A DNA stretch of 37,816 nt from a virus (Duplodnaviria; Heunggongvirae; Uroviricota; Caudoviricetes): the IMG/VR virus record IMGVR_UViG_2563366922_000008, positions 1-37,816 of that record; one strand, 5' to 3'. The position numbers were made by a program, and so were the translations under genes. Positions 15,508-22,048 of this stretch are shown in pieces. Numbering within the stretch: position 1 is the stretch's first letter; every line of letters begins with the position of its first letter. The notes beneath the pieces were generated by a model that was not told the origin of the DNA, did no database searches, and saw nothing but the letters and a program-made list of their open reading frames with translations.

Positions 15508-17007
15508 TTAAGTTCTCCGTGCGATGGGCCTGATTGGGGCTGGTATCTTTTTCTCTTTTGGTTTTTTGATGTCGCGCATCATTTTGGCGAAGCGGCGCAT
15601 CATGTATGCATAGCGAACGGCGGAGAGAACGTCATCGTTAAGCTTGACGATCTTCCCGTTTTCATCACGGTGATAGAGGCGAAACTCCTCAAAGAATGGC
15701 TCACAGGTGTTGAATACTTTGAAGCGACCATCAAGCATCATGTCTCGCAATTCAGTGATGCCAGGCTCAACAGCATTACCGCCATCAGGCCATGTCGCAT
15801 GCTCCTGCAACATCATAAAACCAGCATCTGCATACTGCCCTTTGAGCTGCTCACCGCCGCCCTTCTCATGCTGGTTTCCGTCATGAGGCCATGCTGTTGG
15901 CACTTTATGCGCCCATGATTTAACAGCTCCCCATGCCTGAACGGCTGTTTTTTCTTTCGCCTTCCACACGCGTGAAACGTAGATTGTGTCTGCGTCCTTA
16001 TCCCACCAAAGCTGAACCTGCGCCTGCGGGTGATCCCATCCGAAATCCATCCCGCCAATTACGTAGAAGTGATCAGGGCACTCAAACGGCTGACACTTAA
16101 TCGTCTCTTCCGGTATCTGGAAGATTCGCCCGCTACCCATCGTAGGAATACCGCGAGCACGCGCCTCTCTCTCATGCTCAGGATAGGATGCGATGATTTG
16201 CTCTTTCTGCTCGTCGGTGTAGTGCTCAGCGTCATAGATGGTCATGTTGACCACTTTCTGCGACTTGCTGGGATTCTTCAGGAACTTGGTAACAACGTCA
16301 GACATCCCCATCAGCGGGGTAAACGTCAGAATTGAGAATTGCCCGTATTTGTTGGTACGGGTAAGACCTTCGCCATAAATGCTGTATGGTGGCTCTTCGT
16401 CAAACCACACGCCGTGGATTGTGTCACCCTGCCAGCGAGCACGGCCTTGCGAGTATGGTTTGAAGTAGCAGATTGAAATGCCATCTTCAACGCCATCAGC
16501 CGTGTGATGCTTAACCAGAAGGTGATCAACAAGGTTCGGAAAGAAAGGAGACTTCTTCCAGCTAATGATGTCTTCTTTAGGTATGGAACCGTAGCCTGGC
16601 TCATCATTCTCTTCGATACGACCACACAGGATGCGTTGAGTCGTTTTGGTTACAGTCTCGTTTGTCTCGCCGCCAATCCAGAAGACAACAGGCTCATAGA
16701 AACGCTTACCTTTCCACTCCCCACCATATTTACCATCAGCAGGATAGCCTTTTGTGCCCGGATAACGCCCTGTAAGGTGAAACGCGACTTCAGCAGCACC
16801 AGTAAATGACTTACCAAGCTGGTTACCAGCCATAAAACATCGCTCTGGATAGTCATGTCCGGCGTCGATGAACTCACGCTGTTTGCTGTATGGCGTAAAT
16901 TCATATAGCAGGTGTGTGTTCCGGTAGTTCTCTTCTTCTTCGAGTAGCTCGAGCAATTCGATTTGCTCTTCGTCGCTCAAGTTATCAAGAATCGCGTCCA
17001 GTTCCAC
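15508..17007 (-). CDS. Terminase large subunit, P22 gp2-like
   Basis: 499-aa [70 protein letters not shown]...; apparent GTG start with AAGGAG upstream. Confidence 0.9.
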
Positions 17008-17473
17008 GGTTGAATAGCTCCTTGATACGAGAGCGTCGCTTATCGCGATCTCCCTTATCAGGTGTCACGTCTTCAACTTGCGACTGCTCTTTGAGGCCCA
17101 AATCACGGGCGATGATATTAGCGTTGAGAAGGTCAGCGGCTGCGCCAGAGAATTTCTGGTCGTAGATGACCTGCTCTGCTCGCGTAACGACTTCAGATAA
17201 ATCTTCTCGCAGGCGATATGTGCGCCATGTTTCAAGCGTCACATCAATGAACAGAGTGAGGCCGGTAATGGTCATCGCTCGCATCTTGGCGATAGGCTCT
17301 TGTATCACTTCACCCTGATACGAGAACGCCTTCATCTCCCATAGCGGGTTAGCTTCAACCCACTCGAAGTATTCACAACAAGCAGCCCACAGCGCCTCGG
17401 GCGATTCGAATTTAGGGTTTCGCCCATGACTACTGCGGGCCTCCCAAAATCGGTTGCCCTTTGGTGCTGCCAT
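16985..17473 (-). CDS. Terminase small subunit, P22 gp3-like
   Basis: ATG at 17473 gives 162 aa [48 protein letters not shown]...; overlaps terminase large subunit start as in P22. Confidence 0.85.
17185..17206 (-). other. pac-like packaging site inside small terminase gene
   Basis: Minus-strand GAAGATTTATCTGAAGTCGTTA resembles the 22-bp P22 pac sequence (recalled from memory, about 20/22) and encodes ...LSEVVT... in the gp3 frame. Confidence 0.4.
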
Positions 17474-17496
17474 ATTCATCTCACTTAGTTGTTATT

Positions 17497-17676
17497 TCAG
17501 GCTGAGGACTCTTTCGCGCCTTCAATCAGTGACTGCTTCAGCAATTCGAGTGTGCCAATCGCCTCGCATAAACTGATTTCACCATCGTAATCATGGATGA
17601 CGCTTTCAAGCCGCTCGTATAGCTCTTGAGTAATTGGGAATTTCTTCTCCTTACCAAGATCAACGACGCTTGTCAT
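17497..17676 (-). CDS. Hypothetical 59-aa protein upstream of small terminase
   Basis: ATG at 17676; MTSVVDLGKEKKFPITQELYERLESVIHDYDGEISLCEAIGTLELLKQSLIEGAKESSA; below the 60-aa cutoff of the ORF table, translated by hand. Confidence 0.3.
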   Translation of the reverse strand: MTSVVDLGKEKKFPITQELYERLESVIHDYDGEISLCEAIGTLELLKQSLIEGAKESSA

Positions 17677-17685
17677 AGAGGATTC

Positions 17686-17973
17686 CTATAATTTTGAATA
17701 TCCAGACTCAAATACCTCAGCAGGAGAATATGATTCATATCCATCCTCATAGACAACGTAATAGCCTCCAGACATTGGTCGGTGCTTACAGATATATTCC
17801 GCGCTAACATCAAATGCTGCGTATTTCTTATCATCCGGATGAATAATTGCCCCATAACTAGAAGAGCCAGTCTTACCAGACTGATCTGGGTTTGGCTTAT
17901 GTTCTATAGAGCCAATCTTCAGGGCGCGAACTTTTTTGTGGCACTGGTATCTCGGCATTTCTTGTTCAGTCAT
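17686..17973 (-). CDS. Hypothetical 95-aa protein
   Basis: ORF MTEQEMPRYQCHKKVRALKIGSIEHKPNPDQSGKTG...YVVYEDGYESYSPAEVFESGYSKL; GGAG 9 nt upstream. Confidence 0.5.
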   Translation of the reverse strand: MTEQEMPRYQCHKKVRALKIGSIEHKPNPDQSGKTGSSSYGAIIHPDDKKYAAFDVSAEYICKHRPMSGGYYVVYEDGYESYSPAEVFESGYSKL

Positions 17974-17976
17974 CTC

Positions 17977-18231
17977 TTACACTCCGGTAGTGAACAGGTC
18001 TAACGCTTCCTTCGATTTACGCACCGCTTCGATAGTGCGGGTCGTGATATCTGAATTAGCGCCGCCTGACTGGAAGTGAATTTTGAATAGCTCAAGCTTC
18101 AGCTCGTCAGTGCCAATGAATTGAAATGCTTCTTCTGCGGCTGCGTTCTGGTTCATGACCAGTTTGTAAATCTCTAACTGGAATTTCTGTTCTTCAGTCA
18201 TGGGAATAATCTCTGCCATTGTTGGCTCCAT
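17977..18231 (-). CDS. Hypothetical 84-aa protein
   Basis: ORF MEPTMAEIIPMTEEQKFQLEIYKLVMNQNAAAEEAFQFIG...; start ambiguous (ATG 18231 or 18219). Confidence 0.45.
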   Translation of the reverse strand: MEPTMAEIIPMTEEQKFQLEIYKLVMNQNAAAEEAFQFIGTDELKLELFKIHFQSGGANSDITTRTIEAVRKSKEALDLFTTGV

Positions 18232-18322
18232 TTATCCGTTAAAAGGGATATCAGTTAAGTTATCCCGTGTAGGGTATAAGCCATTATCAAAGCCACTCTG
18301 TAGGGAATGGCTTTTGTAATAA

Positions 18323-18703
18323 CTACTGTTCGCTTAGCTTCTGCTTCAGCAAGTAACCTTCGAGCATCCAGATTTTGTTTACAGCATTCTGCCGGGCAAT
18401 CTTCCGACCAATTTCTGCATCAAAATTTTCCGGACTTGCACAGGCACTCTCTCCGGTGACGGTGAAGCCATTCTTCAGCACCAGTACGCAGAAAGTGAGC
18501 AACTTCAATGGTGATAAATCACGATCGCCTTCTTCTGGTTTTTCCCTGCCACAATATTCGTTGCTGGAAATGGCACCATTTCGTCCATCATAAGCAGTAA
18601 AGTAATGCTCGCTTTTAATCACGTCTTCGATGTGCTGCGGGGTGATTCGCGGTGCCGTTTTGCCTTTCTCAACGATTTCTTTTTCGATTTGCTGGTCGTT
18701 CAT
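18323..18703 (-). CDS. Hypothetical 126-aa protein
   Basis: ORF MNDQQIEKEIVEKGKTAPRITPQHIEDVIKSEHYFTAYDG...; ATG start. Confidence 0.5.
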   Translation of the reverse strand: MNDQQIEKEIVEKGKTAPRITPQHIEDVIKSEHYFTAYDGRNGAISSNEYCGREKPEEGDRDLSPLKLLTFCVLVLKNGFTVTGESACASPENFDAEIGRKIARQNAVNKIWMLEGYLLKQKLSEQ

Positions 18704-18986
18704 AATTATGACCCTGTGGAGTGGTTGCTTGATTAGGATGTCTTTCCATCAGTCCGCCACCACAAAGAATCTTTTTTGCCATAAGGCAGGAGGTTCATCT
18801 TTCAGTGGCTGCCAGTGTTATTTCCCCACTTACTGGCTTGGGTTGTTTCGCGGTACTGCCGTAACTGGTGGTGCACAGATTTAGTTAAATCTGTTCTCGC
18901 CTGAACTATCTTTTACATACCCGGATTGTGGGGATGTAAATCACGGTTTCATTATCAAGCCCACCCGTAGATGGGCTTTGGAATGG

Positions 18987-19505
18987 TCACTTTGGCAGTC
19001 CGGGGATCGATATTTGCGCCTGCTGCTCAAGCCTTTTGATTCTTGCTATGAGTTGCGGTTTTTTGATCCTGCCCCAGCGGTTCAGCAAGCGTCCTGACAT
19101 ACTGGCAACATCCTTTTCCTTCATGAACTCCAGCATTAACTCGTTGTGCTCTCTTTGGTATGAGTGAGCCATCTCCATCAGCCTGTCACGCATCCAATTA
19201 AATGCTTTGATAAACGCCTCTTTGATGGCGGCAGCTTTTTTGCCGGTAAACGACATGATGATGTACATCGCACCGTCTTTGGAAATTTCATATTCAACAT
19301 ACTGATTACCCTTGTGTTCATAGGTAACCCGCGAAAAGTTGCTGGTTAGAAATTCATCCGAACATTCTAGCTTTTCGATTTTCTGAATGATGTGGTGATG
19401 CTGCTTGTCGAAGTAAGCTGCTACCTTGCGGGAGGTTGTGATCACGCGATCACCAGAAACAACCACCATGTCCCGGAAATCGAGATTAGCCAATTGATGA
19501 TTCAT
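18987..19505 (-). CDS. Rha-family phage regulatory protein
   Basis: ATG at 19505 gives MNHQLANLDFRDMVVVSGDRVITTSRKVAAYFDKQHHHIIQKIEKLE...YEHKGNQYVEYEISKDGAMYIIMSFTGKKAAAIKEAFIKAFNWM, typical of the Rha (Phage_pRha) family; table start 19541 is GTG. Confidence 0.7.
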   Translation of the reverse strand: MNHQLANLDFRDMVVVSGDRVITTSRKVAAYFDKQHHHIIQKIEKLECSDEFLTSNFSRVTYEHKGNQYVEYEISKDGAMYIIMSFTGKKAAAIKEAFIKAFNWMRDRLMEMAHSYQREHNELMLEFMKEKDVASMSGRLLNRWGRIKKPQLIARIKRLEQQAQISIPGLPK

Positions 19506-19846
19506 AGCGTCTTTACCTTTTAGAAAGTGAGCCTGTCTCACAGAAAAGCCGCCCGAGAGAGGTCGCCACCTATAACGGCATTTCTCAGGCTCGCTTACTG
19601 AAAGGCTCTCGTTAATATGCGCGTGAGATGCGCTGTGAAATTCAGATATAAAAAGCCCCGCGAATGCGAGGCTAAATCCTGGTGTTTGTGATGACTGGCT
19701 CTTATCTCAACGCAGCCCCTTACCGCGCGCCAGATGCTCAATATCAAGCATCAGCAATGAGATGTTTAATCTGGATTCACTCCAGAAGTGATCACCACCC
19801 TGTCTACAGAGCCAAATGTGAAGGATGATGAGTAAAATTATCGCTA

Positions 19847-20314
19847 TCATCGAAGGCATTGCGTCCTGATATATTCCTGAAGCGTTCTCAGTGCTGTCTG
19901 GTCTCTGATGATTCCGTCCCGGATACCGAGAACGTTTCGTCCAGCAACTGGAGAGAGTTCGACGGTGGCATCATTGCCCATGCCGGAGGAGCTGGAGGTT
20001 TCGGCTGAGGATGGCACAGGGCATTTTCCTTTGACGAGCACCCGACCACCATTATCAAGCTTGCGCCGAAGAGCATCATTTTCAGCTTTCGCATCAGCTA
20101 ACTCCTTCGTGTATTTAGCATCGAGTGCATCAGCATCACGCTGGCGCTGTTGCATGTCAGTAATGGTGGCGTTCGCCTTCTCCAGTTCACTGGCCTTGTT
20201 ATCGCGCTGTTCTTTGTAGGCGATGGCGTTATCATGGTAATGGTTAACAGCCCATGACAGGCAGACGATGATGCAAATAACCAGAGCGGAGATAATCGCG
20301 GTTACTCTGCTCAT
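19847..20314 (-). CDS. Rz: Spanin inner-membrane subunit Rz (lambda-like)
   Basis: ATG at 20314 overlapping endolysin stop; [26 protein letters not shown]...[30 protein letters not shown] matches lambda Rz as recalled. Confidence 0.8.
19888..20094 (-). CDS. Rz1: Spanin outer-membrane lipoprotein Rz1, embedded in +1 frame of Rz
   Basis: [24 protein letters not shown]... with lipobox VVGC, Pro-rich, fully inside Rz as in lambda. Confidence 0.7.
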
Positions 20315-20814
20315 TGCTGCCCCCACAAACAGACTTCACGCTCAATCTCACGACGAGTCATCAGACCTTTCCATTGCTTACCGCCAGCGTATGTCCAGCG
20401 ACGTAGCTGATCACATGCGCCTTTGATATCGCCCTGGTTGATTTTGTGCAGAAGCGTCGATGTTCTGAAATTGCCAGCGCCCACGTTGTAGACGAACGAG
20501 TAAAGAGCGCCGCGCGTTGTTTCCGGTATATCGACTTTGATGTACGGGTTAATTTGTCTGGCGACCGTGGCAAGGTCTTTATTCAGGAGGGCTTTGCATT
20601 CTGCTTCGGTATACGTTTTACCGGGAATGATGTCTTTTCCGGTGTGCCCGTAACATACAGTCCATACACCAACTATGTCTTTGTAAGGATTATGTCTCAC
20701 ACCTTCCAGACCATCGTTACCACTCGGTCCAGTGATTAACACAGATGCTATAGCAATAGCCCCGCCACTTATCGCCGCTATTACGCTATTTCGTAGTGCC
20801 GGTGACATTGCCAT
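20311..20814 (-). CDS. SAR endolysin (T4-lysozyme-like muramidase with N-terminal signal-arrest-release domain)
   Basis: 167-aa ORF with Gly/Ala-rich weakly hydrophobic N-terminus ([23 protein letters not shown]) followed by LEG....Y.D..G.WT.CYGHTG lysozyme catalytic region; phage 21 R-type. Confidence 0.85.
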
Positions 20815-20989
20815 TCAATCTGTCCTCGCGCTCTTTGCGCTTGTAGTACCAGTTGATGCCAAATGTGCCGACAGTACAAAGAATACCAATAATGACAGCC
20901 CAGTCATTCAGGGAGAGAATGCCACCCATCGCAGTCAGTCCTCCGAAACTGTAACTGAACCATTCTCTGATTTTGTCCATACGGTACAT
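20786..20989 (-). CDS. Class II holin / pinholin-like protein with dual-start motif
   Basis: 67-aa [56 protein letters not shown]...; two TM segments; Met1-Tyr-Arg-Met4 dual start; AAGGGG RBS; overlaps endolysin start. Confidence 0.7.
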
Positions 20990-21282
20990 GCTCTACCCCT
21001 TCATTGAGGGGATTTGCTCTATTTAATTAGGAATAAGGTCGATTACTGATAGAACAAATCAAGGCTACTGTGTTTAGTAATCAGATTTGTTCGTGACCGA
21101 TATGCACGGGCAAAACGGCAGGAGGTTGTTAGCGCAACCTCTTGCCACCCGCTTTCACGAAGCCAGTCATTGAGCTGGTTTTCTTTTATGCAAAGCACAC
21201 CGCACCGTAGCCACAGCGGATAAGGTGATTATTTTGGTCTGTCTGGTATTTGGTTTGATGCGCTTTCAGAAAGGTCGTGCTT

Positions 21283-21321
21283 AAAACGCAAAAAGCCCCG
21301 AGCTATTAACTCAGGGCTTTA
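21283..21321 (-). terminator. tR'-like rho-independent terminator about 60 nt downstream of pR'
   Basis: Minus strand AAAGCCCUGAG-uuaauagc-UCGGGGCUUUUUGCGUUUU. Confidence 0.6.
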
Positions 21322-21353
21322 TTTAACGAGTGCATTTATCCATCGTTGAGTCA

Positions 21354-21382
21354 AATTTACCCAACTTTATTCAAAAAGTCAA
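21354..21382 (-). promoter_or_regulatory. Late promoter pR' (-35 TTGACT, 17-bp spacer, -10 TAAATT) with adjacent qut region
   Basis: Minus strand TTGACTTTTTGAATAAAGTTGGGTAAATTTGACTCAACGATGG matches lambda pR'/qut as recalled; directly downstream of Q. Confidence 0.6.
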
Positions 21383-21424
21383 TATTATGCCGTTAATATG
21401 TTGCCATCCGTGGCAATCATGCTG

Positions 21425-22048
21425 CTAACGTGTGACCGCATTCAAAATGTTGTCTGCGATTGACTCTTCTTTGTGGCATTGCACCACCAGAGCGTCATAC
21501 AGCGGCTTAACAGTGCGTGACCAGGTGGGTTGGGTAAGATTTGGGATTAGCATCGTCACAGCGCGATATGCGGCGCTTGCTGGCATCCTTGAATAGCCGA
21601 CACCTTTGCATCTTCCGCATTCTTTCTCAACAACTCTCCCCCACTGCTCTGTTTTTGCTATATCAACCGCACGGCCTGTACCGTGACAATCTCTGCATCT
21701 TGCGCCCGGCGTCGCGGCACTACGGCAATAATCCGCATAAGCGAATGTTGCGAGCACTTGCAGTACCTTTGCCTTAGTATTTCCTTCGAGCTTTGCCACA
21801 CCCCGGTATTTCCCCGATACCTTGTGTGCAAATTGCATCAGATAGTTGATAGCCTTTTGTTTGTCGTTCTGGCTGAGTTCGTGCTTACCGCAGAATGCAG
21901 CCATACCGAATCCGGCTTGTGATTGCGCCATCCCCATAGCAGCCATCACATCAGTACCGGAAAGAGAGTCAGAAGCCGTAGCCCGTGGTGAGTCGCTCAT
22001 CATCGGGCTTTTTGGCGAATGAAATTTAGCTACGCTTTCGAGTCTCAT
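21425..22048 (-). CDS. Q: Late antiterminator Q (lambda-type)
   Basis: 207-aa ORF MRLESVAKFHSPKSPMMSDSPRATASDSLSGTDVMAAMGMAQSQAGFGMAAFCGKHELSQNDKQKAINYL... matches lambda Q as recalled. Confidence 0.9.
   Translation of the reverse strand: MRLESVAKFHSPKSPMMSDSPRATASDSLSGTDVMAAMGMAQSQAGFGMAAFCGKHELSQNDKQKAINYLMQFAHKVSGKYRGVAKLEGNTKAKVLQVLATFAYADYCRSAATPGARCRDCHGTGRAVDIAKTEQWGRVVEKECGRCKGVGYSRMPASAAYRAVTMLIPNLTQPTWSRTVKPLYDALVVQCHKEESIADNILNAVTR

Follow-up and report, generated by a model that had tools for sequence, protein, structure and literature searches.

What do P22-like phages carry between the last gene of their lysis cassette and the first gene of their packaging machinery, and what might these genes do? 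We address this question in IMG/VR virus record IMGVR_UViG_2563366922_000008, the whole 37,816 nucleotides of which were analysed (hereafter, the window). The window represents a P22-like (Lederbergvirus) phage or prophage whose late operon is on the minus strand, the strand of all features given below unless otherwise stated. The block in question (17497-19846) lies between the Rz gene and the small terminase gene and encodes a Rha-family regulator, a 126-amino-acid (aa) protein, a DUF2560 protein (orf80 in P22), a 95-aa protein and a 59-aa protein (orf59c in P22). Here, we propose that the block is a cargo slot of the P22-like late operon which carries counter-defence genes, namely an Acb4-type sponge and a candidate anti-signalling protein, and that these are expressed late and in dependence on Q. 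As a whole, we hold this explanation to be reasonably probable.

The 126-aa open reading frame (ORF; 18323-18703), known as ‘Gp49/Sf6 gene 66’, is a member of the Acb4 family. It matches PF13876 with an E-value of 3.4e-35 and 120.8 bits (gathering score 27), residues 20-123 covering profile positions 1-82 of 82. The protein alone matches the Acb4 of phage SPO1 (PDB 9e4w) at E 0.007, and a profile built from 46 homologues and compared with PDB sequences returns 9e4w as its sole significant match (E 8.3e-5). The AlphaFold2 (AF2) model of the protein, with a predicted local distance difference test score (pLDDT) of 92 and a predicted template modelling score (pTM) of 0.82, has the fold of the SPO1 Acb4 protomer, a three-stranded sheet flanked by helices with a long C-terminal helix. 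When this model was compared with the PDB by Foldseek, the top 13 matches were all chains of 9e4w (probability 1.0, target-normalised TM score up to 0.70), the next match having an E-value of 0.23. Selection on ORFs of the block was assessed from the synonymous and non-synonymous changes among its sequence variants, and for the 126-aa gene the 23 synonymous versus 6 non-synonymous changes indicate purifying selection. A piece of an Acb4-like gene is detectable in 527 of the 5,426 complete Escherichia coli genomes that formed our complete-genome sample.

The Acb4 of SPO1 is a tetrameric sponge for the cyclic dinucleotides of the cyclic-oligonucleotide-based anti-phage signalling system (CBASS) and a member of PF13876, with 1,331 homologues; all 8 of the 8 homologues purified bound 3'3'-cGAMP, and those of phages that infect Gram-negative hosts bound 3'3'-cAA as well (Chang et al., bioRxiv 10.1101/2024.12.30.630793). 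The window protein shares with SPO1 Acb4 its Pfam family, its fold and the core motif F-x-V-x-G-x-S ... ENF-x-x-E-I-G-R, and has homologues at least 70% identical to it that are fused to Tad2 or Sequestin (P0365, P0372), as reported for the Acb4 family. It differs in sequence (about 24% identity), in length (126 aa versus 96 aa) and in being encoded in the late operon of a temperate podovirus. In the HMMER alignment, the SPO1 ligand contacts F48, F62 and I66 are kept as F80, F94 and I98, and two further contact residues, K36 and K81, fall outside the aligned stretch. By analogy with SPO1 Acb4, the 126-aa protein is likely an inhibitor of CBASS, predicted to act by sponging cyclic dinucleotides. 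We note that the Acb4 (382-762) and Tad2-like (997-1497) genes of phage Huey (locus L003, PQ850609.1) are labelled ‘anti-CRISPR protein’. We regard these labels as a pipeline artefact, Pfam assigning the two products to PF13876 and PF11195.

The second candidate is the 95-aa protein (17686-17973; phrog_11049). It has no Pfam match even at E 10 and none in NCBIfam or PADLOC, and neither the protein nor its profile finds anything significant among PDB sequences. The family is large: a profile of 82 homologues retrieves 5,059 cluster representatives at E <= 1e-3, and 3,131 at E <= 1e-10, from a library clustered at 50% identity. Across these 82 sequences, which are 48-76% identical to the window protein, 18 columns are invariant, many of them polar or aromatic, and the invariant positions include P7, Y9, K13, G70, Y71, Y75, G78, Y79, S81, P84, F88, G91 and Y92. 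The AF2 model (pLDDT 82) is a small beta-barrel whose only significant Foldseek match in the PDB is Dec of phage L (6e3c; E 1.3e-4, probability 1.0, TM score 0.65 over 94 columns, 23% identity). A comparison of the 95-aa protein with Dec by hhalign gives a probability of 91%, HMMER alone being not significant (E 0.79). Thus, the protein has an oligonucleotide/oligosaccharide-binding (OB) fold domain like that of Dec (residues 12-89). The C-terminal trimeric spike of Dec (residues 78-134) is not present, the ORF ending just past the OB-fold. The first-pass annotation of this DNA had found no assignable motif in any of the four small proteins of the block, a statement that was wrong for three of them, given PF13876 in the 126-aa protein, PF10834 in the DUF2560 protein and the Dec-like OB-fold described here.

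In light of this fold, what might the 95-aa protein do? The proteins to which its relatives are fused point to an answer. We surveyed 89 family members of at least 130 aa, with partner domains assigned by Pfam, and found Sequestin (PF21825) in 7, Acb4 (PF13876) in 3, a Tad2-like domain (PF11195) in 3, the Acb2/Tad1 hairpin (PF24729) in 2, and six unrelated partner families once or twice each. In all 12 of the 12 fusions mapped with local Acb4, Tad2 and Sequestin profiles, the OB domain comes first, at the N-terminus, and the sponge domain follows at the C-terminus. The same arrangement reaches the slot itself: a Tad2-like fusion protein (cluster c32, PF11195 E 6e-22) occupies it in other P22-like phages, and in phage Huey and three other loci the N-terminal domain of this protein is related to the 95-aa protein (90.7% probability). 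Recurrent fusion to known sponges is what led Tal et al. to Sequestin (bioRxiv 10.1101/2025.07.12.664507). Like the members of the fusions that they described (Tad2-Acb4, Sequestin-Acb4 and Sequestin-Tad2), the 95-aa domain is short, mostly stands alone and is recurrently fused to Acb4, Tad2 and Sequestin. Unlike them, it lacks a Pfam family and would therefore be passed over by a fusion search based on Pfam. It is also a beta-barrel and not a helical hairpin. In a 2026 paper that adds TadIV-1 to six earlier sponge families (Tad1, Tad2, Acb2, Acb4, Sequestin and Lockin), none of these is described as an OB-fold (PMC13243611), and a search of the literature collection at our disposal combining OB-fold with sponge, CBASS and Thoeris gave no result.

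Because of its fusions to the sponge domains Acb4, Tad2 and Sequestin, we regard the 95-aa protein as a candidate anti-defence module. We infer that nucleotide-signalling immunity is most likely what it counters too, by binding a ligand or by partnering a sponge. A more specific and more tentative idea, possible but doubtful at this stage, is that the family might be a further class of nucleotide-immunity inhibitor (a signal sponge or an obligate sponge partner), built on an OB-fold that phage L would have recruited as Dec by adding the trimer spike. We also considered whether the 95-aa protein could be the Lockin sponge and rejected this identification: Lockin is reported to be absent from INPHARED genomes, and there is no Lockin structure among the Foldseek matches, although that structure is possibly unreleased. 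As a separate observation, in one locus (L140) a stand-alone homologue follows a 768-aa ORF which is probably a portal gene.

The block in which these two genes lie is, as such, ordinary. It is the accessory segment of the P22-like late operon, a hot spot of recombination, flanked by the lysis cassette and the packaging genes, at which cassettes of a single gene are exchanged; its nature as a cargo slot has already been described for P22-like phages. The variable cargo that the first-pass annotation expected here was borne out when relatives were compared: a rough comparison of ORF clusters over 82 related loci gives about 65 distinct gene arrangements between Rz and the small terminase, and the ORFs of the block are not all core genes of known function. 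Gene counts were made among 80 IMG/VR loci, pulled out by homology to DUF2560. A Rha gene, in three allele classes, is found in about 35 of these, a 50-aa ORF in about 41, the Acb4-family gene in 22 and the 95-aa gene in 20. In addition to the Tad2-like fusion protein, other occupants of the DNA that follows the terminator described below are KilA-N proteins (some having the ORF11CD3 domain that is also found in Rha, others lacking it), a T5orf172/MUG113 protein and DUF551. At the level of DNA, no phage record spans 80% or more of the 2.5-kb stretch, and among the 5,426 E. coli genomes only 1 does so, although pieces of the stretch are present in 2,833 of them.

Comparison with P22 identifies the insertions. 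The order in P22 is Rz-Rz1-rha-orf25-(pid, opposite strand)-orf80-orf59c-gene 3, pid being a moron that P22 has at this same slot (PMC3573128), and the window follows that order. The two loci agree in position and orientation, have orthologous orf80 and orf59c genes (97-98% DNA identity), place a Rha-family gene at the same point and share a linker of 126 bp that is 95% identical. They differ in that pid and orf25 are lacking from the window, in that the window Rha is just 45% identical to P22 Rha, and in that the window holds two inserts absent from P22, which are the Acb4-family gene and the 95-aa gene. The former is a clean insertion, placed by blastn exactly between P22 40307 and 40309, and the latter lies between orf80 and orf59c.

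How might such cargo be expressed? Along the minus strand, the genes follow one another as Q (21425-22048), holin, lysozyme, Rz/Rz1, the block, small terminase, large terminase and portal. Between Rz and the cargo lies an intrinsic terminator (19646-19673), which the first-pass annotation had already noticed as a terminator-like hairpin near 19655-19680; its stem (19673-19654) has 8 pairs, 6 of them G-C, is followed by UUUUUAU and has a folding energy of -14.1 kcal/mol. Of 88 related loci, 34 have this terminator, in every case 176-178 nt past Rz; directly beyond it, the loci diverge into several unrelated sequence classes. The lysis module thus ends at the terminator, and variable DNA begins. 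A crude scan of 17300-20400 for the sigma-70 consensus found no promoter-like sequence on the late strand. Because all genes of the block are co-oriented with the late operon and no late-strand promoter was found, we infer expression from the late promoter: the cargo genes would be transcribed by Q-modified polymerase reading through the terminator after Rz, which, without Q, would keep them silent in a lysogen. The 126-aa protein, predicted by homology to form a tetramer, would then soak up the cyclic dinucleotides of host CBASS, and the CBASS effector would thus not be triggered during virion building. A sponge made late would plausibly be useful if late events trigger CBASS signalling.

Several observations weigh against this proposal. 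In the 126-aa protein a number of the SPO1 ligand contacts are replaced (E49 by T81, Y57 by A89, N63 by D95, T70 by I102, and V56 by C), replacements that may bear on its ligand specificity. Anti-defence genes are usually expressed early; a sponge in a late operon is unusual and would help only against signals of late infection. The two cargo genes show no clear association, Acb4 being present in 7 of the 20 loci with the 95-aa gene and in 15 of the 60 without it. Divergent homologues of the 95-aa protein mostly lie beside terminase, portal, capsid or lysis genes, a setting as compatible with a virion-related role as with a cargo slot, and the protein’s sole solved structural relative is a capsid decoration protein, at whose genomic position the 95-aa gene sits. 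The last of these points lead to a different explanation, in which the 95-aa protein is a capsid-associated accessory (a decoration or cement protein) like phage L Dec, and orf80, the 95-aa ORF and orf59c belong to head assembly. Dec is, after all, the top match of the model by Foldseek and is supported by hhalign, and in six loci Dec itself (cluster c22, a 134-aa ORF matching 6e3c at E 6e-80) occupies the place of the 95-aa gene between DUF2560 and the small terminase. The likeness to Dec, however, covers the OB-fold, remote profile homology and, in P22-like phages, a place ahead of the small terminase gene, and does not extend to the parts that attach Dec to a capsid. The 95-aa protein is without the three-stranded C-terminal spike, and Dec1-98, the OB domain alone, is unable to bind P22 virions (PMC11398494). 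Five Dec residues contact the coat protein, K30, Y31, Y49, Y71 and E73 (PMC6449081); these align by hhalign, in a remote and therefore uncertain register, with E24, H25, D55, D77 and Y79, so that none is kept. The 95-aa family is also far wider than P22-like phages, and polar and aromatic residues that are invariant across very different phages are a better fit to a common small ligand or host target than to divergent capsid lattices. The genomic contexts point both ways. One OB-Tad2 fusion (L172, 5001-5570, on a contig of Logan SRR31358221) lies between the capsid gene and a portal gene of P22 type, with a sponge domain inside a head-assembly module. For a protein on the outside of the capsid, being joined to sponge domains of the cytoplasm would make little sense. 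Pseudomonas phage homologues are annotated as ‘capsid decoration protein’, among them that of phage Dolphis (L168, MT711888.1, 3989-4483; 164 aa), which is however found among small hypothetical genes near a DNA methyltransferase and not in the head module (its opposite-strand neighbour is labelled tail assembly chaperone). An OB-Sequestin fusion likewise lies outside head modules, among small accessory genes near a DNA methylase, and the gene for an OB-Acb4 fusion has an integrase gene about 1.4 kb away. We therefore rank an anti-defence module above a capsid accessory as the role of the 95-aa protein, with modest confidence, and consider the head-assembly explanation unlikely.

Two further explanations concern the block more broadly. 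The cargo genes could be morons of the classical kind, or lysogenic-conversion genes, which the resting prophage would express for the benefit of the host in the manner of P22 pid or lambda bor. The presence of pid in the same slot of P22 agrees with this, as do the stable hairpin that follows each cargo gene, the presence or absence of these genes among relatives and a G+C content (0.42-0.47 in the block) below that of the flanking terminase and Rz genes (0.50-0.53); lambda bor and other lambdoid morons likewise are accessory DNA that follows Rz, has a lower G+C content and is bordered by hairpins. The window genes, however, run in the direction of the late operon, against which pid and bor are transcribed, and they lie behind a terminator upstream of Rha with no promoter of their own detected by the crude scan. 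A tblastn search of the window with P22 Pid (86 aa, encoded on the strand opposite the late operon) gave no match to the protein and recovered only flanking non-coding DNA, and a sponge for immune signals would harm the lysogen’s own CBASS defence. We thus find the moron explanation improbable. Still more improbable, in our view, is that DUF2560/orf80 and orf59c, and perhaps the 95-aa protein too, assist DNA packaging as accessory factors, an idea suggested by their place directly upstream of the small terminase. That place does not vary among the loci found through homology to DUF2560, DUF2560 also precedes divergent 95-aa homologues, and it was seen in Enterobacteriaceae only and is under purifying selection. 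Yet at least three unrelated types of small terminase (the gp3 type, a 142-aa and a 175-aa protein) co-occur with these candidates, which therefore do not co-vary with the packaging enzyme. Moreover, orf59c and the 95-aa ORF are each missing from many loci, and the cultured phage Bas106 of the BASEL collection (L170, PQ850599.1, 2501-2788) encodes a 100% identical 95-aa protein directly after Rha, without DUF2560. We know of no essential P22 gene mapped between gene 15 and gene 3, which also counts against a packaging role. We accordingly retain the counter-defence cargo slot as the preferred explanation.

The remaining DNA of the block includes two stretches between genes. The first-pass annotation had taken 19542-19846 to be apparently non-coding. 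A 50-aa ORF lies there (19707-19859; phrog_11822 E 3.9e-38), overlapping the Rz stop and having a hydrophobic N-terminus; it is a homologue of Sf6 gene 65 and is annotated in relatives both under that name and as hypothetical proteins in E. coli prophages by the NCBI annotation pipeline PGAP. Among its 26 variants, there are 8 synonymous versus 19 non-synonymous changes, spread evenly over the three codon positions (7/8/12), and one variant has an internal stop. Because this substitution pattern is without purifying selection and one variant is interrupted, we regard the ORF as a doubtful gene, which may be an annotation artefact passed from genome to genome; even so, the stretch is not plainly non-coding.

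The second gap, of 283 bp (18704-18986), had been overlooked, together with two further hairpins. One of these (18957-18978; -17.2 kcal/mol) lies about 10 nt past the Rha stop, is without a U tract on the late strand and is followed by GATAATG. The other (18289-18314; -13.3 kcal/mol) lies about 8 nt past the Acb4 stop and is also without a U tract on the late strand, its plus-strand side being followed by TTTTGT. The two have a common design, AAAGCC...GGCTT(T)GATAATG, which in the hairpin after Acb4 reads AAAGCC...GGCTTTGATAATG. They may be linker sequences that mark module boundaries for recombination, or stabilisers of mRNA 3' ends. The DNA around the hairpin after Acb4 (18261-18323) is 78% identical by blastn to P22 40309-40368, where we would tentatively expect the pid terminator. 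The 126-bp linker shared with P22 is non-coding (18737-18862, no strand assigned) and matches P22 40180-40307, just downstream of P22 rha, in blastn. A small ORF cluster arising from this linker DNA recurs in 45 of the 82 related loci, and the linker seems to be preserved among loci with different flanking genes; a comparison with Rfam gave no match to it.

Of the other genes, the Rha-family regulator (18987-19505; 172 aa) combines a Phage_pRha DNA-binding domain (PF09669 E 1e-23, 84.2 bits versus a cut-off of 29.9) with a C-terminal ORF11CD3 domain (PF10549 E 8.7e-24), and also matches TIGR02681 (76.2 bits versus a cut-off of 45.95) and phrog_518 (E 9.5e-80). The presence of a Rha-family gene between Rz and the small terminase, already claimed in the first-pass annotation, is thus confirmed; its start is moved, the frame being open over 18987-19541 and the ATG at 19505 being the likely true start according to PGAP in 98%-identical prophages. 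By membership of this well-known family of phage proteins, it is a predicted DNA-binding regulator. The rha products of phi80 and P22 inhibit phage growth in hosts deficient in integration host factor (IHF); to our knowledge, their normal role has not been established.

The three ORFs described at 84-126 aa and the 59-aa ORF were all found where they had been placed, on the minus strand, with one start corrected: the frame of the supposed 84-aa ORF is open over 17977-18231, and homologues begin at the ATG at 18219, the most likely start and the one annotated in near-identical prophages, which gives a protein of 80 aa (17977-18219). This is the DUF2560 protein (PF10834 E 1.1e-43, 147.7 bits versus 25), known as orf80 in P22, gene 67 in Sf6 and hkbM in HK620, and its gene is 97.6% identical in DNA to P22 orf80. 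The family comprises just 92 clusters, all from phages and prophages of Enterobacteriaceae and none recorded with a further Pfam domain, and its 18 synonymous versus 5 non-synonymous changes indicate purifying selection; the DUF2560 profile has no significant match among PDB sequences. The 59-aa ORF (17497-17676; phrog_3546 E 1e-41), which is orf59c in P22 (96.9% DNA identity), gene 68 in Sf6 and hkbN in HK620, encodes an acidic protein (isoelectric point 4.5). Both DUF2560/orf80 and orf59c are lineage-specific small proteins. The frame of orf59c continues that of the 95-aa ORF, the gap between them consisting of a TAG stop and three codons (17677-17688), and databases hold proteins of 158 aa identical to the two parts with E or Q replacing the stop (P0001-P0004, P0006). 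We do not read these fusions as a functional link: all are rare single-member clusters and probably represent stop-codon mutations or errors, and we give them little weight because a DUF2560-orf59c fusion is also on record (P0409, 140 aa).

The flanks of the block are those of a P22-like phage. Upstream lies Rz (19847-20326; i-spanin, PF03245 E 1.7e-29, phrog_13), the last gene of the lysis cassette, with Rz1 embedded in it (19888-20094; PF06085 E 3.7e-21, phrog_3198), and downstream lies a small terminase of the gp3 type (16985-17479; PF16677 E 3.6e-33, phrog_606). The closest DNA matches are to the Escherichia and Shigella phages Gally, APC_JM3.2, Bas106, Sf6 and HK620 and to E. coli prophages, at 96-99% identity and in pieces only. 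A search of 16900-21500 at a permissive threshold gave no Rfam match to RNA genes, and the window holds no tRNA or tmRNA genes. In the search for defence systems, PADLOC gave just two sub-threshold matches, and NCBIfam matched Rha alone. Three further ORFs were rejected as spurious: one on the plus strand at 18630-18884, with neither a family match nor a coding signature, one of 37 aa at 18669-18782 without a family match, and one at 19595-19747 without a coding signature.

What is new here is the Acb4-type reading of the ‘Gp49 family’ gene, the presence of Tad2-like genes in the slot, and the Dec-like OB-fold family of the 95-aa protein as an anti-signalling candidate. In hundreds of E. coli prophages, genes with no annotation beyond ‘Gp49 family’ or ‘hypothetical’ can now be interpreted as sponges of the Acb4 type, and since the slot also hosts Tad2-like fusions, it is worth searching for counter-defence genes in temperate phages of enterobacteria. 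The 95-aa domain, very widespread and without a family name, is a concrete candidate of the sort that Pfam-based fusion searches miss. Finally, its link to Dec suggests that one small fold has been put to two different jobs.

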